A stretch of 64,000 bases of DNA from a virus. Positions within the stretch are counted from its first letter, which is position 1; each line of letters opens with the position of its first letter. Of this stretch, positions 5,373-63,520 are shown piece after piece. The position numbers and the translations under genes are program-made. The DNA lies in the IMG/VR virus record IMGVR_UViG_3300015063_000001, positions 779 to 64,778 of that record. One strand, 5' to 3'. The notes below the pieces were generated by a model. It was not told where the DNA came from, searched no databases, and saw nothing but the letters and a program-made list of their open reading frames with translations.

Positions 5373-6323
5373 ATGGACCTGGATTTCACCAAGCAATACC
5401 TGACCAGCGCACAGTTTGATCGGCTGGCGGCCGCGGTCGCAAAGCTCGAAGCGGGGATTGCCGCCGGCGCGGTCCGGAACGTGGACCTGACCGAAGCAAA
5501 GTTCACCATCAACCGGCGGATTGAGGAAATTGTTGAGACCCGGAAAGAATACGGGTCCCGCCACGTCGGCGGGGTTTCTGCCTTGAACCCAGCGATCAAG
5601 GAGGCAAAAAACAACTTCGGCCGCCATGCACTGCTTACCTCGTTGCTGCCTTTCCGGGACCTCTTAGAAGCGGCAAAGCCGCTAGTGGTCAAGCGCGGCC
5701 AGGGGCCGAAGGTGCCGACGAAGCGCGAGCTCGAGCGCTCGGCCCACACAATGACCTGCCAGTGCTGCGAACGCCAGATCTACGCGAACACCGGAACCAT
5801 CGCGCACCACGGCTACGAGCGGCCCGGCCACGGCTGGCAGACCTCGAGTTGCTTCGGCGCCAAGCGGTTGCCCTTCGAGGTGGACCGCGCCGCCCTGGGT
5901 GAAATGATTGTCTTCCTGCGCCACAGGCTGAAAGACCAGCGGGCCCACCGCAAGGCGATCGCGGACGAAATGCAGCCGATTGTCTTCGGGTACGCGGTCC
6001 AGTTCATCGGGCCGGTGCGGTACTACAACTTTGCGGCCCCAAGCTGGAGCCGGGAAAAGTGGCCGACGGTTCAACTCTGGTTCGATGTCACGCGGGAATC
6101 ATTCGACGAATTTAAGGCCGGTGTCGGGAGCGGATCGACCTACGGCGACGACTACGAGGATTACAAGGCCAAGCACGTCGCCCACCTTGATCGCCAGATC
6201 GCGGACCTGGTCAAGCACATCGCCTACGAGCAGGGTCGCTTCGACGGGTGGAAGCAGACGCACGAACGCTGCGGCGACGAGTGGATAAATCTGGCGCCAG
6301 CTATTGCAAACGGTGCCAAATAG
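5373..6323 (+). CDS. hypothetical phage protein with Cys/His motif
   Basis: 316 aa with strong SD; TCQCCE...IAHHGYERPGHGWQTSSCFG. Confidence 0.85.
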   Translation: MDLDFTKQYLTSAQFDRLAAAVAKLEAGIAAGAVRNVDLTEAKFTINRRIEEIVETRKEYGSRHVGGVSALNPAIKEAKNNFGRHALLTSLLPFRDLLEAAKPLVVKRGQGPKVPTKRELERSAHTMTCQCCERQIYANTGTIAHHGYERPGHGWQTSSCFGAKRLPFEVDRAALGEMIVFLRHRLKDQRAHRKAIADEMQPIVFGYAVQFIGPVRYYNFAAPSWSREKWPTVQLWFDVTRESFDEFKAGVGSGSTYGDDYEDYKAKHVAHLDRQIADLVKHIAYEQGRFDGWKQTHERCGDEWINLAPAIANGAK

Positions 6324-48415: not shown

Positions 48416-51400
48416 ATGGCATCCCTTGATGACAGTGGCGATTGGGAAGACGTGTCTTCCCCTACGCCGCCTTCTGGTCTCAGCGCTGCGGCGCCATCGC
48501 CCCAACCTGCCGCCGCGCCGGCACAGGCCAAGGCGCCGGCCGCACAGGTGGCCGGCGGCGACGAATGGGAGGATGTCCCGCAGTGGCGGGGGTATCTGCC
48601 TGTCGCCGCGTCCGCCGTGGCCCAAAGTGCCGTTTCCTCGACTGGGTCTCTGCTCGCCGGCCTACCGGAACTGAGCGGGGACTATAATACCAAATTGCTG
48701 GCGAACCTCGATCGCATCGACCGCGGCGAAAAAGTGCCGATGGCTGATGACCCGATCGGCTATCAGGACATGGATCCTGAAACCCGCAAGCACACCAGGG
48801 CTGACGTCGAGGCGGCAAAGGCGGCTTACAAGCCGCAGGAAACGATGCTCTACAAAGCCGGCCACGCGATTAAAGAGTTCGGGGAAAAGCAGTTCCCGAT
48901 GTCGCTGGACGAACAGAAGTCGATCACGGCACAGGCTGCCGGCGTAGTCGGCGGCATGGCACCTTACCTCGCCGCCGGCGCTGTGCTCGGCCCAGAAGCC
49001 GCCGTAGGTCTCGGTATGGCCGGCATGGGCCTTTCCAGTGCCCATGAACAGGCGGAAGCCGCTCGAGCGAAAAACGCCTCGCCGGAAGCGGTGGCCGAAG
49101 CCGCGCGCATGGGCTTCTACAGTGGTGCCGCCGCGGGCGCGGTGCCGCTGCATGCCGTGATGACGCCGGTCGAACGGCTGGCGCCTGGCATCGCGGATTG
49201 GGCGCGGGCGCGGCTTCAACATGCGGCGCAGACCGGCGTTGCCTTTGCCACGCTTGGCGAAGCGCAGACCTGGCTCGGTCAACAGATCGCACAGAATTTT
49301 TATGATCCGGAGGCCGGCTACTCGCTCGATATTCAGCGCGTGCTCGGCGGCCTGCTCGGTGGTGCCTTCCTGGGTGGTATGGGTCGTACACCGTATCGCG
49401 GTGCCGAACAGCCGGCCGCGGAGAAGCCGAATCAGCACTCCGATGCCATTCAGGATATTCTCGGTGGTGAACCGCCTGGACCGCCAGCACCTCCTGGTGC
49501 TCCCGCTGTGGAGCCTGGAGAGCGTCGGCCGTACCCGGCCGAAGATGACGTTTCAATTCTCGGTGGCGATCGGCCAACCGGCGTTCCAAATGTCGACGAC
49601 TACGTTGACCAGTCGATGCGTAACCTTCGCGCGACGTCGCGCACGGTTGCCGGAACGCTGGATACCTCGTCGACCCCAGGCAAGGAAGAGAAGCTTGTTG
49701 ATGGCCTGACGCCCAAGGCTGCCGCGACACAGGCCGCCTCAAATTACGAAGGCATCGTTCGCCGGCTGTACGATTACAAAGACGATATCCCGACCACCGG
49801 CCCGGAAATGGGGACGCTGGTTAATGACGTCGCCGTTGCTGTAAACAATGGCATCGTCAAGCCGGGCCAGTTGGAGCGCACGACCAACACAAAATTCCCG
49901 ATGCAGACCAGGGCGGAGGATCTTCCGATTGCCTATGGTCAATTCTCTCAGGAATTGGCCGAGCGCCTTTCAAACCCTGCTGCGGATCCGGTCGAGACCG
50001 CGGCATGGATTGAATGGCGCGCAAACATGCTGGACCATTTCTGGACGGATGGCGTCGGCAAAACGTCGAAGGCGCTGGCGGCGATTCCTTTGATGCGGAG
50101 CGGCTTGCCGCTTCCGATCTATCCGCCGATGAAAGACTTTGTTGCGTTCGCCAAGGAACAGCCGCGCGTTGATCCGCTTGAAGGTGGCGCGGCATATCTC
50201 GGGCCGGCGTGGGAAAAATTCAATGCGTTCTACCACGACATGGTTTACCCGCAGAAAAGCCTGCAGGCCGCGCTTGATCGTGGGGCGACCGCCGACGAGC
50301 TAAGTCAGCATCCCATGGTGCTCAATGCCGTGGCGGAAAACAGCAGTCGTGTTCCAACCGGAACACCGGAGGATTTCCAGAACCCGGAATGGCGCAGCCA
50401 GCGCGTTTACAACATTAGTGGTCAGCCCGTCAGGGGTTGGGATGCCGCTGTTTCTGCCCTGACGAATCAGGCCAGCGCATATTCCGGTGGTCAGGTCGAG
50501 CATGGGCGCCATGCCGTCATTGTGCTCGGGCCCCCGGCTGCAGGCAAGTCGTCCATTTCGGAACCTGTTGCGCGGAAATATCGGGCCGCGATCGTTGACC
50601 CCGACGACGCGAAAAAGATCATTCCTGAATATCACAACGGCCTCGGCACCAGTGCTGTGCATGAGGAAAGCTCTGAACTCGCGATCGACGTCCTTAAGAA
50701 CATTGCGCGCGACGGTGGCAACATCGTCTTGCCAAAAGTAGGAGCGAGTGCCGATGGCATAAAGAAACTGGTTAACCGCTTGAAACAGTTGGGGTATACG
50801 GTCGATATCGCCCATGTGGCGGCTACACCAGAGATTTCGGCCCGGCGGAACATCGCTAGATTTCTGAATACCGGACGGCTTGTTAAGCCAGAATATATCA
50901 CTGAGGTAGGTGACAAGCCGCGCAAAACGGCCTATATGTTAAGGGGAGATGCAAATGACTTCATTGACGCCGACACATCCAAAGGCCACTACGAACTCGT
51001 CGAAGGAAACGGGCCGCTCGCCGACATTTTCCGAGATGGAAGAAATTTCGGACAAGGCGCAGATTCGGGCACTGGACGAGCTCTTGGCCGAGCGGAATCA
51101 GAAAAAGGACTGACCGGGGAGCAGGTCCCCGGCATTCCTGAACATCGCGTGACCGCTGCCGACGGCACGGCTATCGATGTCGCGCCGATCGTTGTCGAGG
51201 CATCGAGTCTCAGGACCTCTCAGGATCCCGGCTACGATACCAGCCTGCAGCCGCGGCAGCGCGATCGAGCCGCCAGCCAGGCACAGGTCCGCGACATCGC
51301 CACCAATCTCGACCCAGAACGTCTTGGCTATTCGGCCGAGGCTGATCGCGGGGCGCCGATTGTCGGACCTGACGGCATGGTGGAAAGCGGCAACGGCCGT

Positions 51401-54400
51401 GTGCTCGCGCTCCGAAGCGTTTACGAGCAAGGCGGACCGCAGGCACAGGCCTATCGGGATTGGCTGACGCGCCAGGGCGTCGACGTCTCCGGCTATCAGA
51501 ACCCGGTTTTGGTCCGGAAGCGCGTCACGCCGATGTCGCCACAGGAGCGGCGGTCGTTCACGGTCGCCGCGAACCAGGCCTCAACGCTCAGTATGTCGGC
51601 GCCGGAACGGGCGATGGCCGATGCGCGGCTGATGGATGCGCGGTCGATCGGCTTAATACGCAACGCAGAAGATATCGGCGCCCCTGCAAATCGTGACTTT
51701 GTTCGGCGTTTCGTTTCGCTGTTGCCGCAGGCTGAACAGGGGGCGATGGCTGATGCGCGCGGCGCCTTGTCGGCGGAAGGTCTGGCGCGGGTGCGTAATG
51801 CTGTGCTCGCGAAGGCCTACGGCGATGCTAGCGTTTTGGCGCGCATTGCGGAGTCGACGCACGATGAAGTCCGGTCGATTTCCAACGCCTTAACTGCCGC
51901 GGCGCCTGAGTGGGCGCGGATGCGCTCCGAAGTCGAGGCCGGCCGCGTCCGGTCTGATATGGACGCCACCCCTGATCTGCTCGAGGCAGTAAAGCGCACC
52001 GCAGATATTCGCAGCCGTGGCGAAAAGCTTGAAAACTATTTGGCGCAGCAAGACGCCTTCGACAAGATGCCGGCGCAGGTCGAGGCATTCATGCGAATGT
52101 TCTACGACCCGAAGGGCAATCGGGCAGCGGCGGCGATGCGGATTGCCCGCGCGCTGCGGCTCTATGCTCAAGAGGCTGCAAAAGTTAATGCCGATGAAGG
52201 GCTTGGTTTAGGCTTGGTCCCGGTGAAGCCGCGCGATATAACGCGGCTCGCCCTAGAACGGGAGTGGGAAGATTATGAACCAGATGCGGGAGTTTCCGAC
52301 CGCGGCGGCCTTGGTGACCGCACGGGCGGCGAAGAAGCTGGCCGGGCAGTACGGGGACCTTGGCTTGGCGAGGGCCGCAAAGGATCTCGAGAAGAGGGCT
52401 ATGGAGGCGATCAAGAATCGGCAGTCCGTGCTCAGCGACCAGAGCGCCCATTCAGCCTCAAAAACCTAACGACCGTTCCTGGTGTTGAGCAAGTCGATCT
52501 TGCCGGCGGGAAAAAGGGCGATCAATACGTCTTCCCAGGCACCGAAAAGATTTCCGCGGCCGAGCTTATGCGCCGGCGCGCGGCGGAGCCGATGCGGCCG
52601 AAGGTCGAGCAGAACACTACCGCTAGTGGCCTGTTCGGCGATGGGGCACAACAGCTAAGCCTGCTCGATGCCGCGAGGAAGGCTGCCGCAGAGCCCGTTG
52701 ACAAAGGTCCCATTGTACCCCAAATAGAGGGAACGGAGGCTGCAAATGCAAGTCGCGGAGAACCCGAAAGCGGCGGCATACGCACAGGAACACAAGAGGT
52801 TCCTGGAGGAAAACCGGCCGGACGTGCTCGCCGGGCTACGCCGATCGGGCGACCTGAACAGCTATCTCTCTTCGGTGGGGGAGCAGGCGAGCGATCTGTT
52901 TTTGACGCTAATGATGCAGTACAAAAACAGCCCGGAAATACGGAAGCTCCCGCACCTGGCGCTAGTACAAGCGTTACAAAGCCGCCGGAGGGAAGCCGAC
53001 GAGTTGGTGAGGCACGACATAATCCACCAGCCGTTGAAGGACTGAACGAAGCGCAGACCAAGATTGCGCAGCGCTCCCGCTCGAATTACCGAATTACTGA
53101 TGCCGACAAGATTGGCGAAGGTGGCCCGCGCCAGAAGATTCGCGGCAACCTCGAGGCAATCCGTATCCTCAAGACCATTGAGGATGAAAACCGCGATGCC
53201 ACGCCTGGCGAAAAGGCAGCCCTTGTGCAGTACGTCGGCTGGGGCGCCTTCGCGCAAGATATGTTCGCGCCGCACAAGACGGAATTGAAAGCGGAACGCG
53301 ATACGCTGCGATCGCTGGTCACCGATGAAGAGTTCAACGCGGCTCGAGGGTCTACACTAAACGCGCATTTCACGTCGCCTGACGTCGTCCGCGGCATGTG
53401 GGATGCCATCAATCATCTCGGCTATGACGGCGGGATGGCGATCGAGCCGGCGGCCGGCGTCGGCCATTTCATCGGCATGATCCCGGATAAGGTGGCGCCG
53501 AAGACGGCTTGGACGGCGGTTGAGCTCGACCCGCTTACCGGCCGTATCGCAAAGGCGCTCTACGGAAACGCCGAAGTCAACGTTCACGGCTTTGAGGACT
53601 TGAAGCGGCCATCGAACTATTACGATCTCGCGATCTCGAACGTTCCGTTCGGCAATTACAATATTTCGGAAAAGCCGTATGGCTCGTTTCCGATCCATGA
53701 TTTCTTTTTCGTCAAATCGCTCGACAAGGTTCGGCCCGGTGGCGTCGTCGCATTTGTGACGTCGCGCTACAGCATGGACCGCGTCGACGCCAACACGCGC
53801 CGGCTACTCGGCAAGACGGCCGATCTGGTCGGGGCCATCCGGTTACCTGGCGGCAACAAGGGCGCCTTTGCCGGCAATGCCGGGACGCAAGTCACCACCG
53901 ACGTCATGTTTCTTCGCAAGAAGATTCCGGGCGAGGCGCCGTTCCCCGGCGCCAACTGGTTTGACCTGAAAGAAATCCAAACCCCGGACGGCCCGACGAA
54001 AATCAACGAATATTTTGCCGATCATCCTGAAATGATGCTTGGTGAAATGCGGTTGCAGAGCACCATGTACCGGGACAATGAACCGGTGCTTATTGGTGAC
54101 GCCGAAGGCCTGCAGGACAGGATTGCCGCCGCGGCGCAAAACATGCCGAAGGGCGCCTTTGTCGCTCGCGACACCCCGCCGCCGCCGCCTATCCACGGCA
54201 ACGATATCGCGGCCGGCATCAAGGATGGCGCCTTCTTCTTGCAGGACGGCAAGCTGCACCAGCGCCGCGAGGGGCAGGGCTTTGCTCATCCGCTCAACGC
54301 GGAGGACCACGACCGCGTTACGCGGCTCGTCGGCATGCGCGACGTCGTCAACGATCTGTTGGCGACACAGCTTGCCGGCGGTGAGAACTCGGCAGCGCAA

Positions 54401-57400
54401 GCCGAACATGGCCGCGCCAAGCTGCGGGATGCTTATGATGCCTTTGTCGCCAAACACGGGCCGATCAATAAGGAAGAGCGCACCGTAACCAGCCGGCTTA
54501 ACAAGCTTGGCGAACCGGTGACAATCACTCGGTATCCGAACATCGCTAAGTTCATGGCGGATCCTGACGCTTGGAAAGTTGCGGCGATCGAGAACTACGA
54601 CACCGAGACCGGAAAGGCGAAGCGGGCCGATATCCAGACCAAGGATGTCATCGACGCGCCGATGGAACGCCAGATCAACGGGCCGTCCGATGCTCTGGCG
54701 GCTTCGTTGGACTTCACCGGCGGCGTCGATCTCGACCACATCGCACAGTCTCTCAATTTACAGACGCAGGAAGACGTCGTTCGCCATCTTGGCGATTTGG
54801 TCTACCAGAACCCGGACGGCCGGAAATGGGAGACCGCCGATAGTTACCTGTCCGGCGACGTGGTCAAGAAGCTTGATGATGCCCGCGCCATCGCCGCCGA
54901 AGACACGTCGTATATGCGCAACGTGTCAGCGCTCGAAAAGGTCCAGCCGGAGCCGTTGACCGGCTCAGACATCACGGCGCAGTTCGGGGCGCCATGGGTT
55001 CCAGGCGACGTCTACGAAAGCTTCCTCAAGGAAATCGGCGGTCAGGGCGTCAAGGTCAAGCTGGTCCCGTTGACCGGGGAATGGCGGTCAAGCGCCACGA
55101 TGTATTCCCGCGATGCCAGAGCAAAATATGGAACGGATCGTGTTGAGACAGCAAAGATAGTCGATGCCGCCCTCAACAATAGGCAGATCACGGTTTGGGA
55201 TGAGCACAGCGATGGAAGCAAGTCAGTCAACGAAAAGTCTACCACGGAAGCCAGGGTTAAGACCGAACTGCTGAAAGAGACGTTCACCGGCGACCAGGAA
55301 CACGGCATCGACGGCTGGGTGTTCGCAGATCCGGAGCGCGGCCAACGGTTGGAGGCGATCTACAATCGCACATACAACAACCTTGTGCAGCGCAAGTTCG
55401 ACGGCACGCACCTGACGCTGCCTGGGCTCAATCCTGATTTCGCGACACGCCAGCACCGCAAGGATGCAGTTTGGCGGATCGTCCAGAACGGCAACACGTT
55501 GCTTGCACACGACGTCGGGACTGGAAAAACCGCGACAATGATTGCGGCGGCGATGGAGCAAAAAAGACTTGGCTTAATTAATAAGCCGATGATGGTTGTT
55601 CCAAATCATATGTTGGAACAGTTCTCGCGCGAGTTTATCCAGGCGTATCCAGACGCTAAGATTTTGGTCGCGCAAAAAGACGAGATGACCAGGGAGAACC
55701 GCAAGGCGTTTCTGGCGCGCGTGGCGTCCAACGATTGGGACAGCGTCATCATTACGCATGATGCCTTCGGTCGCATTAACATGGGGCAGGAGTTCCGCAG
55801 GGCCTTCATCCGCGACCAACTCGACGAATTGGATCGGGCCATTAAGGCGGAAGCCGCTGAAAGCGATAAGAAGTCGCCGACGGTAAAGAGCTTGGAAAAG
55901 GCAAAAAAGAAGCTGCAGGGGCGGCTTGAAAATTTGATGAATGAAGAGCGCAAGGATGCTGGGACCAATTTTGAAGAATCCGGCGTCGATAATCTCTTCA
56001 TCGATGAAGCGCATTGCTTCCCATACAATACGATGGTCCAGACAGATCGCGGTCCAATCAAAATTGGTGAGATCGTTGAGAGGCAACTATCGGTTTCTGT
56101 CGCCAGCATAGATCACCGGACCGGTCGCCTTATATGGAATCCGATCCACAATTATTGGCGGCACAATCGCGGCAATAAGCAGTTTGTGCTTGTAAAAACC
56201 GATAAATCTGACATACTTTGCACAGTCAATCATCGAGTATTTGTGGATGGGCGAGGGTATGTCAGGGCAGATGAAATCAAGCCGGGAGAGGCTTTGCGCG
56301 CTTTGCCAGAGGCCGTTTGTGCCAGCGTCGCGCGGCAGACTTGGGAATACCCAGAAGCATTGCTCGCGCCAGTGTGCGAAAACGGCAGCCAAGAAACTAG
56401 TAGAAAAGAATTGCGAACTGTGCGGCGAGCCGTTTCAGTTTCGCAGTTCTGGAAAGACGAACAACGACAAGCGACGGTTTTGCGGCAGTCCATGTGCGGC
56501 GTCATGGCGGATGGCGCAGCCTGGGCGGATGGAGAAGTCCGCGCCGATGTGGGCCGCTTCGCGGAAGAAATGGTTGGAGCCAGAATACAAGGCCATGATG
56601 GCGTCGGCATCATCAAAAAGAATGCTTGCCGACAACCCGATGTCAAACGCGGATATCCGGCAGAAAGTCAGCGTGTCGCTGAGCGGGCGGACTTTTCTAT
56701 CTCGCGGCGGCAACGGCCAGCCGACGAAGCCGCAGTTGCTACTGCATGGCTTGACCGGTCTTCCCATGGAATATGCAATACTGACGAAGCCAGTGCACGG
56801 TCGATTTCAGAGTCTGCCGCAATGCTACAAGGTGGATTTGGCGGACCCGGTGCGCAAGTTGGCTATAGAGGTGGACGGCAACAGCCATCGTTCTCGGAAA
56901 TGGAAGTTTCTGGACCGACGCAAGACAGAAATACTGAATGCGCTCGGGTGGTCAGTGTTGAGATTCTCGAACGAGGAAGTGATCGCGAACCCAGAACTGG
57001 TGGTTCAGAAGATAGCTTCGTTTATGATCTCGGCGTCGCCGGCGAGCACAATTATTTCGCCAATGGAGTCCTAGTCCACAACTCGTTCAAGAACCTAGCT
57101 TTTATAACTCGTATGCAGCGCGTCAAGGGCTTGGCGCAGGGTGATAGCCAGCGCGCCGAAGACCTGTTCCTCAAGATTCAATACTTGGAACAGAAGCGGC
57201 CGGGGCGAGCGGCGGTGTTTGCCACCGGGACGCCGGTCTCTAACACGATGGCCGAGCTTTGGACGATGCAGCGGTATTTGAACCTGCGTGCGTTGAAAGA
57301 GCGCGGACTGGATACGTTCGATTCCTGGGCTTCGACCTTCGGCCGCGTCGTCAACAATATGGAATTGTCGGCTGACGGTCGCACCTTCAAGGAGGTGTCG

Positions 57401-60400
57401 TCGTTCTCGAAGTTTGTCAACGTGCCGGAACTGGTGTCTCTGTATTCAGAGATCGCAGATACAAAAACGGCGGACATGCTGAAACTGCCGACGCCGGATG
57501 TCAAAACCCGCAGCGGGGCGCCCGGCATCGAGATCGTCCAGGCGGAGCCTTCTTCCCAGGAAGAAGCGCACATCCAGAAATTGGTCGAACTCGCGGAATC
57601 GCTCAAAGGCAAGCGCCCTGAAAAGGGCCAGCCGAACATGCTGAGCGTGGTGACGGAAGGCCGCAAGGTCGCCACCGATGGTCGGCTGATTTCGCCTGAT
57701 TTTGATTTCAACCCGCAGGGCAAGATCGCCCTGGGCGTCAACAATATCCATCGCATATGGGAAGAGGGCAACGCTGACCCGTCGGCGCCGAACAAGGTGC
57801 AGATGGTGTTCCTCGACATGGGCGTACCGAAGAGCAAGGCCGCGGCAAAGAAGAAGCCGGCTGACGTCGATCTCGAGGAAGGTGCCGACCCGGCACAGGA
57901 AGCGGCGCCGCGCATCGACCTGTACGCCGACATCAAGAAGCGCCTTGTCGACGCCGGCATCCCGGCGAAAGAGATCGCAGCAATTCATGACGCGACGGAC
58001 GACGACAAGAAGGCAAAACTGTTCCAGAAGGTCCGCAACGGTGAAGTCCGGGTTATCTTGGGATCATCCGGAAAGATGGGCGTCGGCACAAACGTCCAAG
58101 ACAAACTTATCGCGATGCACCACTTTGACGCACCGTGGAAGCCAGCGGATGTCACGCAGCGCGACGGCCGTATCGTGCGGCAAGGCAACAAGAATAAGGA
58201 CGTGCAGATCTACCGCTATGTCACGAAGCGCTCTTTCGACGCCTTCATGTGGCAGAAGCTTGACACCAAATCGAAGTTTATCGGGCAGGTTTTGTCGGGG
58301 GCGAAGGGCTCCCGCCACGCCGAAGACATCGACAACCCGCTGCCGGAAGCTGCGGAAATGAAGGCGGCCGCGTCTGGTGACCCGCGGATTATAGAGCACG
58401 CCGAACTCGATCGCCAGGTCCGCGCCTTGTCGGCGCAGCGTAGATCGTTTGACGCGACGAAATCGCGGGCGCAGTGGGAAACCGGAACGGCAAAAACCCG
58501 TATTCAGGGATACGAGGACGCATTGCCGAACGCCAAGGCCGATGCTGCCAGCGTGCAGGATTTGGCCGGCGACAAGTTTAGCGCTGAGCTCGGCGGCTCG
58601 GTGGTGACTGATCGCAAGGTGGCCGGGCAGGCAATCCTAGATCGGTTATTGGCTGTTGATGCCCGCACCTTCTACACGCCGAAGATTGTCACGCTCGGCA
58701 AGCTGTCCGGCTTCGATATGAACGTCGAACTGCGTGGCGGCTGGGATGGCTCGTCGGCCATTCTGCGGGCGCAGCCGTCACTCAAAGGCAAGAGCGGCTA
58801 CGGCACGCCGAACGATACGGTCATTAATGCGCAGACCGATCCCGGCGGCTTGATCCGCCGGTTTGAAAATATCCTCGGTAACATCCGGCAGAACCCGGAC
58901 CGGTTGGAACGCGAGTTGGCCGGCGAAAAGGACAGCGTTGCGAAACTCGAAAAGACCTTGGGCGAGACATGGCCGAAGGAAAATGATTACCGCGCCGCGC
59001 TGGATAAGCTTCATGCGCTGAGCGAGTCGTTGAAGGCGCCGAAGCATCCCGACGTCTTTACGGAAGAGGTGAAGGAGCGCCGCGGCGGCTGGGATCAGGC
59101 CGAAGGCCGCGACATGGGCCCGAAGCTTGGCGAGACCGCCGTTCGTATCGGGGCAAAAACGGAAGCCCATATCAAGCCGACCGAGCGCTACACGGCGGCT
59201 GAGAAAAAGATTGCCAACGCTGTTGCCGAGATCGGTCAGCGCATGGCGCCGCAGGCCGACGTCAGGGGCGCAGCCGCGCTCCGGCAGAACGGCAATCAGA
59301 TATGGGGTGCCTTCGTCAACAGCGAGGCCTTCCCGCACCTTGTCGCGTGGTCTCTCGAAAAGGGCAGTCCGGCCCAGATTGCCGGCACGGTGCGCCATGA
59401 AATTGTCCATCATCTCCGTGAGGCCGGTTTGATCCGTCCGAACGAATGGGCGGCATTACGCGATGCGGCGGTCAAGGATGACTGGCTCGGCAAGCATAAC
59501 ATCGAGGACCGCTATCCGGACCTTTCAATGGACCGCAAGGTGGAAGAAGCCGTTGCCGAACAGTTCTCAAAATGGCGCACTGAACGGTCGATCGAAAAGC
59601 CAGGCCTGATCCGGGACGCCTTCCAGCGGATCGAATTGCTGTTCCGCCGTGTGGCTGCGGCGGCGCGCAGCTTCATGGGCAAGGATGCCACCGCCAATGA
59701 CGTCTTCACTAGGATTGAAACCGGCGAAGTCGGCGCTCGCCATTCCGACCAGATCGAGGCGCAGAAGCGGTATTTGGCACAAGACAACCGCGAGGCCGCG
59801 CAGACGCCGGGCGAAGAGAACCGGAAGCGGCGCGAGTTTGCGCGCGGTTTGCCCGGCGCGGAGCCGACCATTCGTGATAGGATAGTGCAGGCTGCCGATG
59901 CTCTGCGGGCTAAGGCGGCCGAGTTCTCTGAGAAGATTGGCGTCGATCAAATCGTCCGTGACATGCAGATGCGCGTGGCGCCGATGGCGGCGCGTGACGC
60001 CACCGTGCAGTCCCGCGCGATCGCCAAGGAGTTCATCAACGCGCGCCGGCAATCCAGGCAATCCTGGAATGCCGCCGACAAATACATCATGGACAATTTC
60101 CCGCCGGAGCGCCGCAAGGCTATGTGGGATGCCGCTGACGAGCAAAGCGTTGCGATGCAGCGCGGCCGGTCGACGGTGGGGATCGGCCTCGACCGTCTGC
60201 CACCGGATGAACGGCGTGTTGTCGAAATGCTGCAGGCCCGTGGTGAGCGCAATCTGAAAGACGCCAACGATCTCGGTATGATCGAAAGCGAAGGCCTTCC
60301 GAGCTACGCGCCGCGCATGGTGGTCCGCATGGCGGAAGGCAAATACGAGCATGGGGCTGGCCCCGGTGCCGAAGTGGTTCGTGACGTCCGAACCTTGGCG

Positions 60401-63400
60401 CTCGCCAACGCACGGCTCGAAGACGCCATTGCGGCGCGGCGCCTTATCAACTCTATCGAGGAAGTCGGCAAAAGGAGTGGTAACCCGACCGTCAACGATG
60501 GCGGGGCTCCGACGCGCAAGATTGGTGCGGAAGGCCAAATCGCGAATGTTCTCGACCAGATCGGTCGCGGCGTCTCGACGTCGACGCCGCAGTTGAAGCA
60601 CCGCAAGTATCTGACGACGGAAGAAACCGAAGCGGCGGCCAATAAGGTTCCGGTGGCCGATAAGAATGCCCCGGATTGGTTCACGCTCAATCACCCGGCG
60701 TTTACGAAGCTTATGCCGCGCATGACCGACTCTGACCCGAAAACCTATCGGGATGCAGTCAAGCGCGTCAGCGGCATGACCGTCGAAAACAAGCAGGTCC
60801 CGGCCCGCGATGAAGACGGCAATATCATCTATGACCGCAAGCCGATTTACGTCCGGGCCGATTTCGAGGGTCCGCTTCGCGCCGTTCTTTCCAAGGACAC
60901 CGACCGCACCTACCGCGCCTTGATGGCCCTCAAGGGCAAGGTGATGTCGGTTATCATGATGTCGCCGCTTATCCACAATCAAGTGGAATGGGGCCGCGCG
61001 CTGCCGGTGGCACCTGGCAAGGTGGTCACGTTCCAGACCTATCTCGAGGGCAACAAGGTTGCCAACGATCCGAAACTTATGAACCGCGCCATTGCTGGTG
61101 GCGTCGTCCCGATCGGCGGACACGGCTATATGCAGGATATCGTGTCGATCGCGGAAGCGCCGACGGTGCGGCCTGGCCGGTCGTTGACGGCCAAGGGCTT
61201 GGGCTACGGCGCCGAAGGCCTCGGGTATCTGACGCGGCTTTATAACCCGCGCTCAGGCGCTAATGAAGTTCGCAATGCCGTCGATTGGTTCGGAAACGTT
61301 TGGCACAACCGGATGCTTTGGGACCGCATTCGTGACCTGCAAATGGGTCTGTGGTCGCACGTCAATGAAACTATGGTCGGTAAAGGATATGATCCTTATA
61401 GCGCCAACGTGGCGGCGGCACACTTTGCAAACCGATATGCCGGCGCACTGCCGATTGAAGCGATGTCTGGCATCGCCCGCGGCATTGCCAACGTCTTGCT
61501 GTTCTCGCGGAGCTTCACGCTCGGCAACCTAGGCGCCTACAAGGACGCCATCCTCGGGCTGCCGCGTGACGCACAGGCGATGATCCAGCAAAACGTCGGA
61601 TACGCCGAATTACAGAAGGTTCAGAGTTACGTGAAACGAAAGTCGCTGGCGATGCTGGCGATCGACGCCGGGCTTTATTACGCGACATTGTCGGCCCTGC
61701 AGAGCGCGTTCAACGTGGCCGGCGTCGGCCATACCGTCAGCACGCTCGGCGGCATGATTGCCGGCGGCGCCCTTGGCGGCAAAGGCGGCACGTTCGGCCG
61801 GTTGGCTGCGGCGGCGGGTATGGGCGCGGCCGGGTTCGGGCTTGCCAGCGTTCTCGGCGCGTCAAAGGGTACCCGCGATCTTGAGGACGAGCTCGGCCGG
61901 TACTGGACCAGGTTCTCCGATCTGCTTGGTCGTGTTGGCGAGCATCCGTTTGAAACGATTGGCAACCCGTTCAAGATGCTGGAGTCGCTCGGCTCGACTG
62001 CGGAAAATGAGCCCGGCAAGAAGAGCCGCCTGCTGATCGGCTACCAGCCTGACGGCACGGCGATCTACGCGCGCCTCGCGGTCGGCAAGGTCACAGAAGA
62101 GTTGATGGGCTACATGACCGAGCCGAACGAGATGCTTCATCGTAAGCTGAGCACCTTCGCCAGACCGTTGTCGCAACTTTATAATAACGACGCCGGCTTT
62201 GGGCATCCGGTGTATGACAAAAAAGCTGATACGCCGTACGCTGTCACGAAGAACATTATCAAAATTGCCGCCCTGATTGTCGGTGACCAGATACCGGTCG
62301 ACACCATCAAGGGTGCCATGGACTGGTACGGCGGCGGACCGGGCTCCGAAGTGTCTGGCATGAAGGCGATCGCGCCGTTCATCGGCACGACGATCTCAAA
62401 GGGCTTCCCTGGTGGGCCCGAGCTCGGCGTATTGCAGGACGCAAAGGATCGGCAGAAATACCGAGTGCAGGAAGCGTTGCCCGGCATCCGCGAGCAAATC
62501 AAAAAGGGCGATACCGAAGGCGCAGTAGCCAAGATGGAAGAACTGCATATCCCGCGCGGGCTGCAGGGCTACTACATTCGCACGACGCAAGACCCGGCAT
62601 CGCGGCTCTCCAAGCGCGAGATGCACGATTTCATGCAATACGCCTCGCCGGACGAACAGCGCGAGTATGAGAACACGCAGCGGAACAGGCCGACTACGGA
62701 CGGCTCGGCACCGAAGCGCGCCGATGGCGGAAAGGTGGAGGCTGACTACGACACCGCGCTAACGCCGGATGAAGAGGCAAGCTTCCAACAGTGGAAGGCG
62801 GACAATGCACCGCACGATTCTGGCGCGGACTATGACCTCCGTGGTGCGTTCAAGGCCGGCCTGTCGCCCGCCGCCGATGGTCATTGGGATGACACCTTCA
62901 AAAAGCCGAACCATCCGACTTTCAGCATCTATTCCAAATATGCGAAGGATCGGCCGGAGTTGGCCGGGACATGGAATGGCGATCAATACATCCCGCCCGT
63001 TCCTGCCCGCGCGCACGGCGGCCGCGTCGAGGCGGCAAACATCAATCACAATCCGACTGAGGCGCAGAAGCACGCCGGCAACTACGCAAAAGATCACGTA
63101 AGAATCCACGGCCACGACATCACCATCGAGAACGCCAAAGGCAAACGCCGGCACGGCGTTGGTCAAGACGGCAAGCCATGGTCCGCCGTGCTCGGGGCAC
63201 ACTACGGGTATTTTAAAAAATCTGAGGCCAGAGATGGCGATCATGTCGACTGCTACCTCGGCCCGCACATCAAGTCCCCGCACGTCTTTGCCATCGATCA
63301 AGTCGACCACAGGACCGGCAAATACGACGAAGCAAAAATCTGTCTTGGTTTCGCAAACGAAAAGCAGGCGTTGCGCGCCTATGAGGCCGGGTTCTCGGAT

Positions 63401-63520
63401 GGCAAAGGCCGCGATCGCATCGGCAAGGTGCACGCTATGACCGTGCCGCAGTTCCGCGCGTGGCTGAAACACGGCGATACAAAGCGGCCGTTCCGGCATG
63501 TGGAGACGGCCGAAACCTAA
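48416..63520 (+). CDS. giant (5034 aa) virion-associated polyvalent protein: Fic-like, zeta-toxin-like kinase, ddrB-ParB, N6-adenine methyltransferase plus SNF2 helicase (DarB-like, with intein), zincin metallopeptidase, InPase-like
   Basis: HFWTDGVGKTSK; GPPAAGKS; VESGNGR; EPAAGVG and NVPFG; HDVGTGKT and DEAH; RHEIVHH...EEAVA; PTEAQKHAGNY...DGDHVDCY. Confidence 0.92.
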   Translation: MASLDDSGDWEDVSSPTPPSGLSAAAPSPQPAAAPAQAKAPAAQVAGGDEWEDVPQWRGYLPVAASAVAQSAVSSTGSLLAGLPELSGDYNTKLLANLDRIDRGEKVPMADDPIGYQDMDPETRKHTRADVEAAKAAYKPQETMLYKAGHAIKEFGEKQFPMSLDEQKSITAQAAGVVGGMAPYLAAGAVLGPEAAVGLGMAGMGLSSAHEQAEAARAKNASPEAVAEAARMGFYSGAAAGAVPLHAVMTPVERLAPGIADWARARLQHAAQTGVAFATLGEAQTWLGQQIAQNFYDPEAGYSLDIQRVLGGLLGGAFLGGMGRTPYRGAEQPAAEKPNQHSDAIQDILGGEPPGPPAPPGAPAVEPGERRPYPAEDDVSILGGDRPTGVPNVDDYVDQSMRNLRATSRTVAGTLDTSSTPGKEEKLVDGLTPKAAATQAASNYEGIVRRLYDYKDDIPTTGPEMGTLVNDVAVAVNNGIVKPGQLERTTNTKFPMQTRAEDLPIAYGQFSQELAERLSNPAADPVETAAWIEWRANMLDHFWTDGVGKTSKALAAIPLMRSGLPLPIYPPMKDFVAFAKEQPRVDPLEGGAAYLGPAWEKFNAFYHDMVYPQKSLQAALDRGATADELSQHPMVLNAVAENSSRVPTGTPEDFQNPEWRSQRVYNISGQPVRGWDAAVSALTNQASAYSGGQVEHGRHAVIVLGPPAAGKSSISEPVARKYRAAIVDPDDAKKIIPEYHNGLGTSAVHEESSELAIDVLKNIARDGGNIVLPKVGASADGIKKLVNRLKQLGYTVDIAHVAATPEISARRNIARFLNTGRLVKPEYITEVGDKPRKTAYMLRGDANDFIDADTSKGHYELVEGNGPLADIFRDGRNFGQGADSGTGRALGRAESEKGLTGEQVPGIPEHRVTAADGTAIDVAPIVVEASSLRTSQDPGYDTSLQPRQRDRAASQAQVRDIATNLDPERLGYSAEADRGAPIVGPDGMVESGNGRVLALRSVYEQGGPQAQAYRDWLTRQGVDVSGYQNPVLVRKRVTPMSPQERRSFTVAANQASTLSMSAPERAMADARLMDARSIGLIRNAEDIGAPANRDFVRRFVSLLPQAEQGAMADARGALSAEGLARVRNAVLAKAYGDASVLARIAESTHDEVRSISNALTAAAPEWARMRSEVEAGRVRSDMDATPDLLEAVKRTADIRSRGEKLENYLAQQDAFDKMPAQVEAFMRMFYDPKGNRAAAAMRIARALRLYAQEAAKVNADEGLGLGLVPVKPRDITRLALEREWEDYEPDAGVSDRGGLGDRTGGEEAGRAVRGPWLGEGRKGSREEGYGGDQESAVRAQRPERPFSLKNLTTVPGVEQVDLAGGKKGDQYVFPGTEKISAAELMRRRAAEPMRPKVEQNTTASGLFGDGAQQLSLLDAARKAAAEPVDKGPIVPQIEGTEAANASRGEPESGGIRTGTQEVPGGKPAGRARRATPIGRPEQLSLFGGGAGERSVFDANDAVQKQPGNTEAPAPGASTSVTKPPEGSRRVGEARHNPPAVEGLNEAQTKIAQRSRSNYRITDADKIGEGGPRQKIRGNLEAIRILKTIEDENRDATPGEKAALVQYVGWGAFAQDMFAPHKTELKAERDTLRSLVTDEEFNAARGSTLNAHFTSPDVVRGMWDAINHLGYDGGMAIEPAAGVGHFIGMIPDKVAPKTAWTAVELDPLTGRIAKALYGNAEVNVHGFEDLKRPSNYYDLAISNVPFGNYNISEKPYGSFPIHDFFFVKSLDKVRPGGVVAFVTSRYSMDRVDANTRRLLGKTADLVGAIRLPGGNKGAFAGNAGTQVTTDVMFLRKKIPGEAPFPGANWFDLKEIQTPDGPTKINEYFADHPEMMLGEMRLQSTMYRDNEPVLIGDAEGLQDRIAAAAQNMPKGAFVARDTPPPPPIHGNDIAAGIKDGAFFLQDGKLHQRREGQGFAHPLNAEDHDRVTRLVGMRDVVNDLLATQLAGGENSAAQAEHGRAKLRDAYDAFVAKHGPINKEERTVTSRLNKLGEPVTITRYPNIAKFMADPDAWKVAAIENYDTETGKAKRADIQTKDVIDAPMERQINGPSDALAASLDFTGGVDLDHIAQSLNLQTQEDVVRHLGDLVYQNPDGRKWETADSYLSGDVVKKLDDARAIAAEDTSYMRNVSALEKVQPEPLTGSDITAQFGAPWVPGDVYESFLKEIGGQGVKVKLVPLTGEWRSSATMYSRDARAKYGTDRVETAKIVDAALNNRQITVWDEHSDGSKSVNEKSTTEARVKTELLKETFTGDQEHGIDGWVFADPERGQRLEAIYNRTYNNLVQRKFDGTHLTLPGLNPDFATRQHRKDAVWRIVQNGNTLLAHDVGTGKTATMIAAAMEQKRLGLINKPMMVVPNHMLEQFSREFIQAYPDAKILVAQKDEMTRENRKAFLARVASNDWDSVIITHDAFGRINMGQEFRRAFIRDQLDELDRAIKAEAAESDKKSPTVKSLEKAKKKLQGRLENLMNEERKDAGTNFEESGVDNLFIDEAHCFPYNTMVQTDRGPIKIGEIVERQLSVSVASIDHRTGRLIWNPIHNYWRHNRGNKQFVLVKTDKSDILCTVNHRVFVDGRGYVRADEIKPGEALRALPEAVCASVARQTWEYPEALLAPVCENGSQETSRKELRTVRRAVSVSQFWKDEQRQATVLRQSMCGVMADGAAWADGEVRADVGRFAEEMVGARIQGHDGVGIIKKNACRQPDVKRGYPAESQRVAERADFSISRRQRPADEAAVATAWLDRSSHGICNTDEASARSISESAAMLQGGFGGPGAQVGYRGGRQQPSFSEMEVSGPTQDRNTECARVVSVEILERGSDREPRTGGSEDSFVYDLGVAGEHNYFANGVLVHNSFKNLAFITRMQRVKGLAQGDSQRAEDLFLKIQYLEQKRPGRAAVFATGTPVSNTMAELWTMQRYLNLRALKERGLDTFDSWASTFGRVVNNMELSADGRTFKEVSSFSKFVNVPELVSLYSEIADTKTADMLKLPTPDVKTRSGAPGIEIVQAEPSSQEEAHIQKLVELAESLKGKRPEKGQPNMLSVVTEGRKVATDGRLISPDFDFNPQGKIALGVNNIHRIWEEGNADPSAPNKVQMVFLDMGVPKSKAAAKKKPADVDLEEGADPAQEAAPRIDLYADIKKRLVDAGIPAKEIAAIHDATDDDKKAKLFQKVRNGEVRVILGSSGKMGVGTNVQDKLIAMHHFDAPWKPADVTQRDGRIVRQGNKNKDVQIYRYVTKRSFDAFMWQKLDTKSKFIGQVLSGAKGSRHAEDIDNPLPEAAEMKAAASGDPRIIEHAELDRQVRALSAQRRSFDATKSRAQWETGTAKTRIQGYEDALPNAKADAASVQDLAGDKFSAELGGSVVTDRKVAGQAILDRLLAVDARTFYTPKIVTLGKLSGFDMNVELRGGWDGSSAILRAQPSLKGKSGYGTPNDTVINAQTDPGGLIRRFENILGNIRQNPDRLERELAGEKDSVAKLEKTLGETWPKENDYRAALDKLHALSESLKAPKHPDVFTEEVKERRGGWDQAEGRDMGPKLGETAVRIGAKTEAHIKPTERYTAAEKKIANAVAEIGQRMAPQADVRGAAALRQNGNQIWGAFVNSEAFPHLVAWSLEKGSPAQIAGTVRHEIVHHLREAGLIRPNEWAALRDAAVKDDWLGKHNIEDRYPDLSMDRKVEEAVAEQFSKWRTERSIEKPGLIRDAFQRIELLFRRVAAAARSFMGKDATANDVFTRIETGEVGARHSDQIEAQKRYLAQDNREAAQTPGEENRKRREFARGLPGAEPTIRDRIVQAADALRAKAAEFSEKIGVDQIVRDMQMRVAPMAARDATVQSRAIAKEFINARRQSRQSWNAADKYIMDNFPPERRKAMWDAADEQSVAMQRGRSTVGIGLDRLPPDERRVVEMLQARGERNLKDANDLGMIESEGLPSYAPRMVVRMAEGKYEHGAGPGAEVVRDVRTLALANARLEDAIAARRLINSIEEVGKRSGNPTVNDGGAPTRKIGAEGQIANVLDQIGRGVSTSTPQLKHRKYLTTEETEAAANKVPVADKNAPDWFTLNHPAFTKLMPRMTDSDPKTYRDAVKRVSGMTVENKQVPARDEDGNIIYDRKPIYVRADFEGPLRAVLSKDTDRTYRALMALKGKVMSVIMMSPLIHNQVEWGRALPVAPGKVVTFQTYLEGNKVANDPKLMNRAIAGGVVPIGGHGYMQDIVSIAEAPTVRPGRSLTAKGLGYGAEGLGYLTRLYNPRSGANEVRNAVDWFGNVWHNRMLWDRIRDLQMGLWSHVNETMVGKGYDPYSANVAAAHFANRYAGALPIEAMSGIARGIANVLLFSRSFTLGNLGAYKDAILGLPRDAQAMIQQNVGYAELQKVQSYVKRKSLAMLAIDAGLYYATLSALQSAFNVAGVGHTVSTLGGMIAGGALGGKGGTFGRLAAAAGMGAAGFGLASVLGASKGTRDLEDELGRYWTRFSDLLGRVGEHPFETIGNPFKMLESLGSTAENEPGKKSRLLIGYQPDGTAIYARLAVGKVTEELMGYMTEPNEMLHRKLSTFARPLSQLYNNDAGFGHPVYDKKADTPYAVTKNIIKIAALIVGDQIPVDTIKGAMDWYGGGPGSEVSGMKAIAPFIGTTISKGFPGGPELGVLQDAKDRQKYRVQEALPGIREQIKKGDTEGAVAKMEELHIPRGLQGYYIRTTQDPASRLSKREMHDFMQYASPDEQREYENTQRNRPTTDGSAPKRADGGKVEADYDTALTPDEEASFQQWKADNAPHDSGADYDLRGAFKAGLSPAADGHWDDTFKKPNHPTFSIYSKYAKDRPELAGTWNGDQYIPPVPARAHGGRVEAANINHNPTEAQKHAGNYAKDHVRIHGHDITIENAKGKRRHGVGQDGKPWSAVLGAHYGYFKKSEARDGDHVDCYLGPHIKSPHVFAIDQVDHRTGKYDEAKICLGFANEKQALRAYEAGFSDGKGRDRIGKVHAMTVPQFRAWLKHGDTKRPFRHVETAET
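50949..51113 (+). CDS. nested +1-frame ORF overlapping the end of the zeta domain (candidate antitoxin)
   Basis: SD AAGGGGAG before ATG 50949/50955; MQMTSLTPTHPKATTNSSKETGRSPTFSEMEEISDKAQIRALDELLAERNQKKD* (manual translation). Confidence 0.55.
   Translation: MQMTSLTPTHPKATTNSSKETGRSPTFSEMEEISDKAQIRALDELLAERNQKKD
52275..52469 (+). CDS. nested +1-frame ORF, small helical protein
   Basis: 53 of 64 codons end in G/C in this frame, versus about half in the host frame; GGAG upstream. Confidence 0.65.
   Translation: MNQMREFPTAAALVTARAAKKLAGQYGDLGLARAAKDLEKRAMEAIKNRQSVLSDQSAHSASKT
52746..53045 (+). CDS. nested +1-frame TnpV-like protein
   Basis: SD GGAGG with 6-nt spacer; Y...HKRFLEENRP...L..SGDL..YL..V.EQA...A.E.V..DII fits the TnpV pattern. 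Confidence 0.75.
   Translation: MQVAENPKAAAYAQEHKRFLEENRPDVLAGLRRSGDLNSYLSSVGEQASDLFLTLMMQYKNSPEIRKLPHLALVQALQSRRREADELVRHDIIHQPLKD
56015..57082 (+). mobile_element. class 1 intein (356 aa) inserted directly after the helicase DEAH motif
   Basis: Block A CFPYNTMV, block B CTVNH, block F VYDLGV...HNYFANG, block G VLVHN/S; removal restores IDEAH-SFKNL. Confidence 0.93.
56241..57074 (+). CDS. zinc-ribbon plus Vsr/DUF559-like endonuclease in the +1 frame, entirely inside the intein
   Basis: CALC, CSRQC, CELC, CGSPC; YKVDLAD...LAIEVDGNSH...DRRKTEILNALGWSVLRFSNEEV; alternative ATG starts at 56259 and 56271. Confidence 0.85.
   Translation: MWMGEGMSGQMKSSRERLCALCQRPFVPASRGRLGNTQKHCSRQCAKTAAKKLVEKNCELCGEPFQFRSSGKTNNDKRRFCGSPCAASWRMAQPGRMEKSAPMWAASRKKWLEPEYKAMMASASSKRMLADNPMSNADIRQKVSVSLSGRTFLSRGGNGQPTKPQLLLHGLTGLPMEYAILTKPVHGRFQSLPQCYKVDLADPVRKLAIEVDGNSHRSRKWKFLDRRKTEILNALGWSVLRFSNEEVIANPELVVQKIASFMISASPASTIISPMES

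Follow-up and report, generated by a model that had tools for sequence, protein, structure and literature searches.

In a 64,000-nucleotide stretch of viral DNA from a soil metagenome (the window; positions 779 to 64,778 of IMG/VR record IMGVR_UViG_3300015063_000001) we analysed an open reading frame (ORF) of 15 kb, here called the host ORF, that contains four smaller genes in its +1 frame: two short genes that we name A and B, a gene of the TnpV family (tnpV), and an endonuclease gene that lies within an intein. The comparison with related loci lends good support to nested, separately encoded genes inside a translated polyprotein. Judging from the sequences, the host ORF is very probably one translated phage polyvalent protein, of the injected, anti-defence type, whose DNA is dual-coding at four places.

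A preliminary description of the window had placed four ORFs in one shared +1 frame, and all of them do lie there: their start positions modulo 3 give 0, against 2 for the host ORF (Table 1). It had also counted a jump of the G+C content at third codon positions (GC3) into the +1 frame at 52275, which we recovered, with 53 of 64 codons ending in G or C between 52275 and 52466 (0.83) vs 0.49 in the host frame. GC3 is higher in the +1 frame than in the host frame at all four nests; the overall GC3 of the host ORF is 0.68. Shine-Dalgarno-like (SD-like) sites are present before the first three nested starts, as had been reported: GGAGG stands 6 nt before the ATG of tnpV, GGGAG..GGGAAG-ATG precedes the start of B, and AGGGGAG lies before the two ATGs of A (50949/50955). 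These three nests also sit at domain boundaries, in the order Zeta_toxin (residues 700-831), A, ddrB-ParB (916-1036), B and TnpV, methylase-helicase. For the fourth ORF (56241-57074) the frame is real, but the gene lies inside an intein and its start is most likely the ATG at 56259 rather than the TTG at 56241. The nested genes do escape standard gene callers, which miss or mis-split them.

Table 1. Features of the host ORF and of the genes and motifs nested in it (window coordinates; GC3 as nested frame/host frame).
Feature	Coordinates	Strand	Frame and size	GC3 nested/host	Description
Host ORF	48416..63520	+	host frame, 5034 codons		phage-type polyvalent protein (Pfam and motif reading)
Gene A	50949..51113	+	+1 frame, 54 aa	0.69/0.45	overlaps end of Zeta domain and next linker; likely start 50955 (second ATG)
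Gene B	52275..52469	+	+1 frame, 64 aa	0.83/0.49	helix-turn-helix-like hairpin
Linker motif	52535..52669	+	host frame		PGTEKISAAELMRRRAAEPMRPK ... GLFGDG ... QQLSLLD, between B and TnpV nests
tnpV	52746..53045	+	+1 frame, 99 aa	0.77/0.36	Pfam PF14198
QLSLFGG	52859..52879	+	host frame, residues 1482-1488		over invariant SYLSSVG of TnpV
Class-1 intein	56015..57082	+	host frame, 356 aa, Cys2534 to Asn2889		+1 residue Ser; after helicase DEAH motif
Endonuclease	56259..57074	+	+1 frame, 271 aa from ATG 56259	0.67/0.49	open from TTG 56241

Frame-specific conservation in homologues points to both frames being kept. In ordinary domains of the host ORF, mismatches to relatives pile up in the third position of host codons (for example 0.09/0.07/0.44 and 0.13/0.08/0.52 in the order 1/2/3). 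The nests show no such excess: their mismatches are spread evenly or peak at host position 1, which is nested position 3, and host position 3 is less variable than in the controls. Purifying selection was found on both frames, the pattern by which same-strand nested genes are recognised. A blind sliding-window periodicity scan against three relatives (L032, L016, and L023) flagged 50920-51159, 52220-52479, and 52700-53059; the remaining flagged windows all fall in 49480-50319, where the relatives are non-homologous or misaligned. The +1 ORFs of that region (49221-50303) were considered as candidates and rejected as out-of-frame junk: they have no homologues, and the L016/L023 stretch is non-homologous. 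Against L005, a relative of about 80% identity that has no intein, the same scan flagged no window in 53046-61390.

The tnpV product matches PF14198 over model positions 19-111 of 111 (E=5e-12; 46.2 bits, cut-off 27) and has 30 homologues of about 99 amino acids. Its AlphaFold model is a helical bundle with a predicted local distance difference test score (pLDDT) of 89.9, which AlphaFold database (AFDB) clusters named TnpV match at template modelling (TM) scores of 0.73-0.84; a Foldseek search of the model against the PDB gave no match at E<=0.001, so that the fold offered no hint of function. We compared 35 collected tnpV loci. The host frame, which is -1 relative to tnpV, is open over the gene in about 31 of them, and in 12 loci tnpV sits inside a long host ORF, of up to 5047 codons or ending at the contig end. 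Synonymous resampling puts the probability of an open host frame over tnpV at 0.001-0.003 per gene; among the ordinary genes here, 7.7% of 100-codon windows are open in the corresponding frame. An ATG and an SD-like site precede tnpV in 11 of 12 loci examined (L013 has only a GTG there) and precede B in most nested loci. Scanning viral contigs with the single TnpV sequence returned nothing, and scanning them with the alignment returned one locus.

The nested arrangement of tnpV was also seen on a plasmid. A Firmicute tnpV, 31% identical, is +1-nested in a 1996-codon ORF of the Subdoligranulum variabile plasmid OY725878.1 (L119:7103-13090); it has its own AGGAAAGGAG-ATG and, from a by-eye reading of the sequence, follows a candidate ArdC-N-type domain. 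Two gut phage-like contigs (L120 and L121) carry a free-standing tnpV with 6-11 stops in the -1 frame, and on the strength of these stops we regard TnpV as the older reading and the linker as the overprint. In two further loci (L015:43-573 and L034:735-1265) the QLSLFGG-bearing frame over tnpV leads not to a methylase but to the beginning of a DdrB-ParB domain (HRVVAADGTAIDV...), and then stops, so that the tnpV/linker module occurs in more than one domain context.

The host frame over the nests had been described as mostly Gly/Arg/Glu-rich filler. As a full account this does not stand: conserved short motifs are present, QLSLFGG among them. In a sample of 28 non-identical tnpV genes, 44-82% identical as proteins, the codons that the TnpV frame uses over this motif are frozen, namely TAT in 27/28 and CTC, TCT, TCG, and GTG each in 28/28. 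The background codon use of the same genes is very different: Tyr is written TAT in 13% of cases and Leu is written CTC in 21%, while TCT is never used for Ser (0%). Such variation as occurs near the motif is either silent in both frames (AGC/AGT, both Ser; CTA/TTA, both Leu) or alters the residue after GG. In the host frame, QLSLF (residues 1482-1486) is conserved in 27 of these 28 diverged genes, the other reading QLPLF, and the region is disordered. The TnpV proteins of this clade read SYLSSVG here, while gut Firmicute copies have YLADID or HLEEVD at the same place. The change permits QLSLFGG in the other frame; given this difference, the SSVG variant looks, in sequence comparison, like an adaptation to the overlap.

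QLSLF fits QL[SD]LF, which we take to be the consensus of peptides that bind the beta sliding clamp. We modelled host residues 1455-1500 with the clamp of E. coli, possibly unlike that of the actual host. The complex scored an ipSAE of 0.82 (best control 0.00), a value obtained with the E. coli clamp that may echo solved clamp-peptide structures already known to the model; among 78 solved complexes 51 attain this mark, and among 108 mismatched pairs 2 do. At least 80% of contacts were common to the three runs, the partner pLDDT was at least 47, and residues 1480-1486 were placed in the canonical hydrophobic pocket between clamp domains II and III (clamp residues 172-177, 242, 247, and 360-366). 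The model shows a predicted likeness to known clamp peptides rather than binding.

The linker that separates the B nest from the TnpV nest has a second host-frame motif. Its pattern, PG.E.IS.AEL..RRAAEP.R ... GLFG, is kept in five giant ORFs (window, L032, L016, L023, and L116), and the +1 frame has stops there, which shows that between the nests the host frame is genuinely protein-coding. Its QQLSLLD element resembles a weaker clamp-type motif, and PGTEKISAAELMRRRAAEPMRPK could be a processing or docking site.

Some tnpV genes lie outside any giant ORF and still have an open -1 frame, of 73-239 codons, with the same frozen QLSLFGG codons (L001:9874-10515, L004:9922-10377, L006:3509-3949, L012, L015, L017, L026, L030, and L035). 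These short frames may have been left behind recently by polyvalent genes, may encode a small product that binds the clamp, or may point to recoding. Two loci (L025:1434-1943 and L028:5955-6287) hold in-frame hybrids of the two readings: in one the N-terminus of TnpV passes into QLSLFGG, in the other QLSLFGG passes into the C-terminus of TnpV. Indel errors, pseudogenes, and natural fusions of the two frames are all conceivable here.

Genes A and B are smaller. The A product carries the motif SPTxSEMEE and a C-terminal amphipathic helix, and L016 and L023 also preserve its +1 ORF together with the ATG and an SD-like site. A word-based homologue search gave no candidate for A. A profile built from three sequences (window, L016, and L023) and searched against 1.84 billion protein representatives found 18 proteins at E<=1e-3, including proteins of 49-64 amino acids and composites in which the A motif (SPTPSEMEx..D..L..L.E.L) stands beside or between B modules: L117/P0161 is B-A-B, P0164 is B-A, and a composite in L004 is B-A-B with an additional C-terminal domain. 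We take these shared composites as evidence that A and B are modules of one small-protein family. B follows the pattern FPTAAALV.ARAAK..A..YGDLGLAR...RQSVL and its homologues are 52-67% identical. Nesting in the frame of tnpV, with both genes inside one host ORF, is seen for B in the window, L016, L023, L032, and L116, with weaker matches in L022 and L024; the host frame is open over B in 7/7 giant ORFs. Just 5' of tnpV in L001-L004 and L005 there are longer, free-standing homologues of B, over which the -1 frame is stopped. Structure models predict one long helix for A and a helical hairpin of two helices for B (pLDDT about 90). Pfam and PHROG searches of A, B, and their free-standing relatives gave no family, and the ESM Atlas gave no usable match for the free-standing A/B protein.

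The preliminary description had further supposed that the nested genes are partners of the neighbouring domains, as immunity or chaperone genes, a role that gained no support here. For A, this would require a tie to the Zeta domain, a Zeta-toxin-like P-loop kinase, and neither strict linkage nor kinship to antitoxins was found. The idea of a Zeta antitoxin was set aside for want of support: A has no Pfam or PHROG family, A modules occur in loci without a Zeta domain (L004 and L117), and no A module was detected in the Zeta-bearing giant ORF L116. As a separate observation, L004:11363-12073 is a gene of the SocB family that lies 1 kb from a free-standing A/B-tnpV cassette with QLSLFGG in the -1 frame, which may be a coincidence; SocB is a clamp-binding toxin of Caulobacter.

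Instead of a partner of the polyprotein, the fourth nested gene encodes, by its family, a homing endonuclease that belongs to a selfish intein. The intein carries the class-1 splicing blocks (C2534, TVNH, and VLVHN↓S, the arrow marking the splice point; Intein_splicing 42.6 bits, cut-off 35.8), and its roughly 230 central host-frame codons contain no recognisable domain. It is missing at the same site in L005, which reads DEAH-KFKNL there, and in all other polyvalent loci sampled. A 536-base contig of a related organism from the same soil sample joins the two helicase flanks with 60 other letters between them (window 55956-57085); it is probably the intein-less allele of a relative. The nested endonuclease has two CxxC...CxxxC zinc ribbons followed by a Vsr-like DUF559 nuclease (E=8.6e-14; 51.8 bits, cut-off 20.6), with E210, D212, G213, and H216 invariant among 22 homologues, and the ATG at 56259 agrees with the homologue N-termini. 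Its stop lies 8 nt 5' of the intein end, and it overlaps the splicing blocks at both ends. There are 179 homologues, called as separate proteins.

We examined 83 endonuclease loci: the window, two metagenome contigs, and 80 of 260 tblastn matches in IMG/VR. Across the full length of the match the host (-1) frame is free of stops in 83/83, within ORFs of 506-3000 codons, and the third frame is open in 0/83. Synonymous resampling predicts 8-25 stops in the host frame, giving a probability of an open frame of 1e-4 to 4e-19; the value is 8e-6 in the window, and 4e-19 is reached in AT-rich relatives. Intein ends (DE↓CFPY ... NYFA.G.LV[HS]N↓[CS]) can be recognised in 15 sampled host frames, which belong to SNF2/DEAD helicases, a DnaX/clamp-loader-like ATPase, and others. 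In L094:1299-3413, L104, and L113 the endonuclease/intein family stands after the Walker-B 'DE' of a DnaX/clamp-loader-like ATPase and of other helicases; its target seems to be, quite generally, the (I/V)DE↓C site of P-loop ATPases.

The domains of the host ORF and its neighbours are those of a phage polyvalent protein. Besides Zeta_toxin and ddrB-ParB, Pfam matches comprise ResIII/SNF2 (residues 2344-2538), Intein_splicing, Helicase_C, and a C-terminal InPase; the N6A-methylase motifs EPAAGVGHF and NVPFG and an HExxH peptidase motif (HEIVHH, 59396-59413) are readable in the sequence, and there is a membrane-like Gly/Ala segment. DdrB-ParB and InPase have been named as phage-type, probably virion-packaged domains (PMC5512222). 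Many unrelated anti-host or DNA-processing domains, hub domains among them, are joined in one polypeptide, as in polyvalent proteins, and the host ORF adjoins phage head and ejection genes: genes upstream of it match PHROG portal, major head, and DNA ejection protein families. In the giant ORFs that reach both sides of the nest (window, L016, L022, L024, and L116), the order ddrB-ParB, nest, SNF2 is unbroken, while the terminal domains differ, with Zeta or InPase in front and RelA_SpoT or ART-PolyVal behind. A megablast search of the whole host ORF against plasmids and phages gave no match.

L005 offers a view of the same modules unfused. Where the window has a single ORF, L005 has a B-family gene, tnpV, a methylase-helicase, and a next gene, with single in-frame stops at two module boundaries (295-297 and 5533-5535, corresponding to 52700 and 59032 of the window); the stop at the helicase/next-gene boundary is a Lys codon in the window. 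The fused and unfused states differ here by point changes, in a direction that the comparison does not allow to be read. The host frame of L005 begins at the stop 20 nt before tnpV and offers no ATG, GTG or TTG for 528 nt (to 826). This start-less stretch is under purifying selection, and the methylase N-terminus is conserved (window 53046-53260).

These data bear directly on whether the giant ORF is one protein. It could instead be a row of separate genes (kinase, A, ParB, B, tnpV, and methylase-helicase) between which the host frame is merely open, and the two boundary stops of L005, which gene callers split, would fit this, as would the lack of an obvious host-frame fold over the nests and a hydrophilic, Gly/Arg/Glu-rich reading that is typical of out-of-frame translation. 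We nevertheless consider it very unlikely, as no giant ORF that spans both ParB and SNF2 has a break in the host frame between them, and as this frame is open over tnpV in most loci even though each gene had so small a chance of leaving it open. Moreover, the linker motif is conserved in the host frame precisely where the +1 frame stops, the QLSLFGG codons are frozen, read-through of the intein is obligatory, and the methylase N-terminus of L005 has no ATG, GTG or TTG upstream, back to the stop just before tnpV. That same missing start could be explained by programmed frameshifting, in which a +1 shift would yield shortened polyproteins with A, B or TnpV at their end, and a -1 shift would lead from tnpV into the methylase-helicase frame. 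The purifying selection on the start-less stretch, the open -1 frame kept by 'free-standing' tnpV genes, and the in-frame hybrids of L025 and L028 speak for it. Yet no conserved X XXY YYZ heptamer was found in the tnpV frame of 17 loci, the ATG and SD-like site stand before tnpV and B as described above, free-standing homologues begin at the same residues, and the hybrids may be metagenome indel errors, all of which leaves frameshifting improbable.

Two more trivial explanations were also weighed. With a soil metagenome as the source and frame switches in L025 and L028, assembly or sequencing frameshifts might have made in-frame domains look nested through compensating indels. Against this, another sample from this soil study yielded contigs identical to pieces of 52159-57039, with zero differences and zero indels; the same offset recurs in independent assemblies from different projects (83 for the endonuclease, 12 for tnpV, 7 for B, and 3 for A), and each nested ORF has its own start and stop while the host frame is unstopped. 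Such an artefact is barely conceivable. Hydrophilic, GC-rich host codons, on the other hand, seldom create +1 stops and could leave ORFs by chance: about 8% of 100-codon windows in ordinary genes are open in an alternative frame, the host ORF has 92 alternative-frame stretches of at least 40 codons, and a Pfam search of ten of its other long alternative-frame or antisense ORFs found no family. All four nests, however, have homologues and protein-level patterns, some of them outside giant ORFs, the substitution pattern tracks the nested frame, and the TnpV frame folds with high predicted confidence. Chance is already refuted for B, TnpV, and the endonuclease, and as an account of the locus it is exceedingly unlikely.

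Several points weigh against one dual-coding polyvalent gene with four separately translated nests. The stretch was found in none of the RNA runs searched. SD spacing is poor at 56259/56271, and some endonuclease relatives lack a canonical start in the range examined. Gene A draws on three fairly close giant-ORF relatives and the profile matches, and its SD/ATG may in part result from codon conservation at RG(D/E)A in the host frame. The clamp score may reflect solved complexes remembered by the model, with a clamp that is not the host's. Finally, the simple picture does not account for the short QLSLFGG ORFs outside giant ORFs, some of which have an ATG and some no canonical start.

With these points in mind, the most probable working of the dual-coding locus can be outlined. 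A, B, and tnpV would most likely be translated separately, from internal Shine-Dalgarno/ATG sites of the same mRNA, and the host frame over them would serve as a disordered spacer with short linear motifs, of which QLSLFGG probably tethers the methylase-helicase part to the beta sliding clamp of the host. The intein frame would have to stay open for the helicase to be spliced, and the endonuclease, to judge by its family, would drive the spread of the intein. The read-through fusion put forward in the preliminary description is plausible for A, B, and tnpV, in view of the L005 modules and the free-standing A/B protein-tnpV cassettes, and tnpV genes with stops in the other frame also exist free-standing; it does not extend to the fourth gene, which as an intein endonuclease most likely came by another route. 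Three nested genes belong to pre-existing families that are also found free-standing, which makes the host frame the younger reading. The most likely origin would then be the fusion of separate genes by loss of stop codons, so that translation came to cross older small genes in another frame, and, for the intein, the invasion of a mini-intein by a free-standing endonuclease gene.

A broader scheme can be put forward tentatively, at somewhat less than even confidence. Polyvalent proteins might grow by read-through of small genes, their linkers being systematically second genes; the tnpV locus of this clade might always give two products, TnpV and, from the -1 frame, a disordered peptide with a beta-clamp-binding motif, even without a giant ORF; the small helical proteins A, B, and TnpV might be a hitherto unrecognised module accessory to a ParB-methylase-helicase core; and the clamp motif might couple this core, or a small peptide, to the host replisome.

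Four proteins, one of them a site-specific nuclease by family, are hidden here from standard annotation, and likewise in hundreds of related contigs. The locus is an unusually clean comparative case of long same-strand dual coding in a bacterial virus, in which 15 bases encode both an invariant motif of a structured protein and a short linear motif of another protein. It suggests that giant polyvalent proteins arise by stop-codon loss across operons, and that their 'disordered linkers' deserve to be checked for hidden genes. Non-canonical inteins gain a large sense-strand, out-of-frame family of Vsr type, and this family supports the acquisition of endonucleases by inteins through invasion of free-standing genes. 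Two ideas are open to experiment: that an injected methylase-helicase is tethered to the sliding clamp of the host, and that TnpV-family proteins work with polyvalent proteins and not as excisionases.

Nested out-of-frame genes and out-of-frame intein endonucleases are known kinds. What appears to be new is the nesting of four genes in one ORF, together with the A/B modules and the dual coding of the clamp motif. The classical same-strand nested genes, in which both readings are functional, are comS in srfAB of Bacillus subtilis, Rz1 in Rz of phage lambda, and B and E of phiX174. As in these, each nest is a complete small out-of-frame gene with its own start inside a larger gene; unlike in these, four nests share one ORF, and in one of the overlaps a short linear motif of the host frame is fixed as well.

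The domains DdrB-ParB, SNF2 ATPase, N6A methylase, zincin peptidase, and InPase are shared with the polyvalent proteins described by Iyer, Burroughs, Anand, de Souza, and Aravind (2017; PMC5512222). The difference is that the linkers of the ORF studied here double as second genes; a search of the text of PMC5512222 found no mention of overlapping genes, frameshifts, inteins, clamp motifs or TnpV. The nested TnpV resembles that of Tn4451 and relatives in its PF14198 membership, predicted fold, and carriage on a mobile element; for TnpV of Tn4451 a role in excision was merely postulated, from its likeness to lambda Xis (PMC3158075).

The intein compares most closely with non-canonical inteins (Gosselin, Arsenault & Gogarten, bioRxiv 10.1101/2025.01.02.630785), in which the homing endonuclease occupies a separate frame or strand: in actinobacteriophages these are an EndoVII-like enzyme in frame 3 and antisense Vsr-like and LAGLIDADG enzymes. 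Common to both are an open interior without a fold, a complete endonuclease ORF that is read in a different frame and lies between the splicing blocks, in part overlapping them, a sporadic distribution, and a proposed origin from a free-standing endonuclease gene that invaded an intein. What sets the present inteins apart is that they form a large family with a sense-strand, +1 endonuclease of zinc-ribbon plus Vsr/DUF559 type, in SNF2/DEAD helicases and Walker-B ATPases. A related case is the hidden out-of-frame HNH in a phage methylase (PMC11855218). In the 'fractured genes' of Dassa et al. (2009; PMC2677866), a free-standing Vsr-like endonuclease gene stands between the halves of a split intein. 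They share with our intein the Vsr-like (EDxHD-type) nuclease superfamily, a mainly phage setting, and an endonuclease 3' end that runs over the downstream intein part (by 6-69 bp there). There, however, the host gene is two ORFs whose products are trans-spliced, whereas our intein is unbroken and has the complete endonuclease gene overprinted on it, the host frame running through without a stop.

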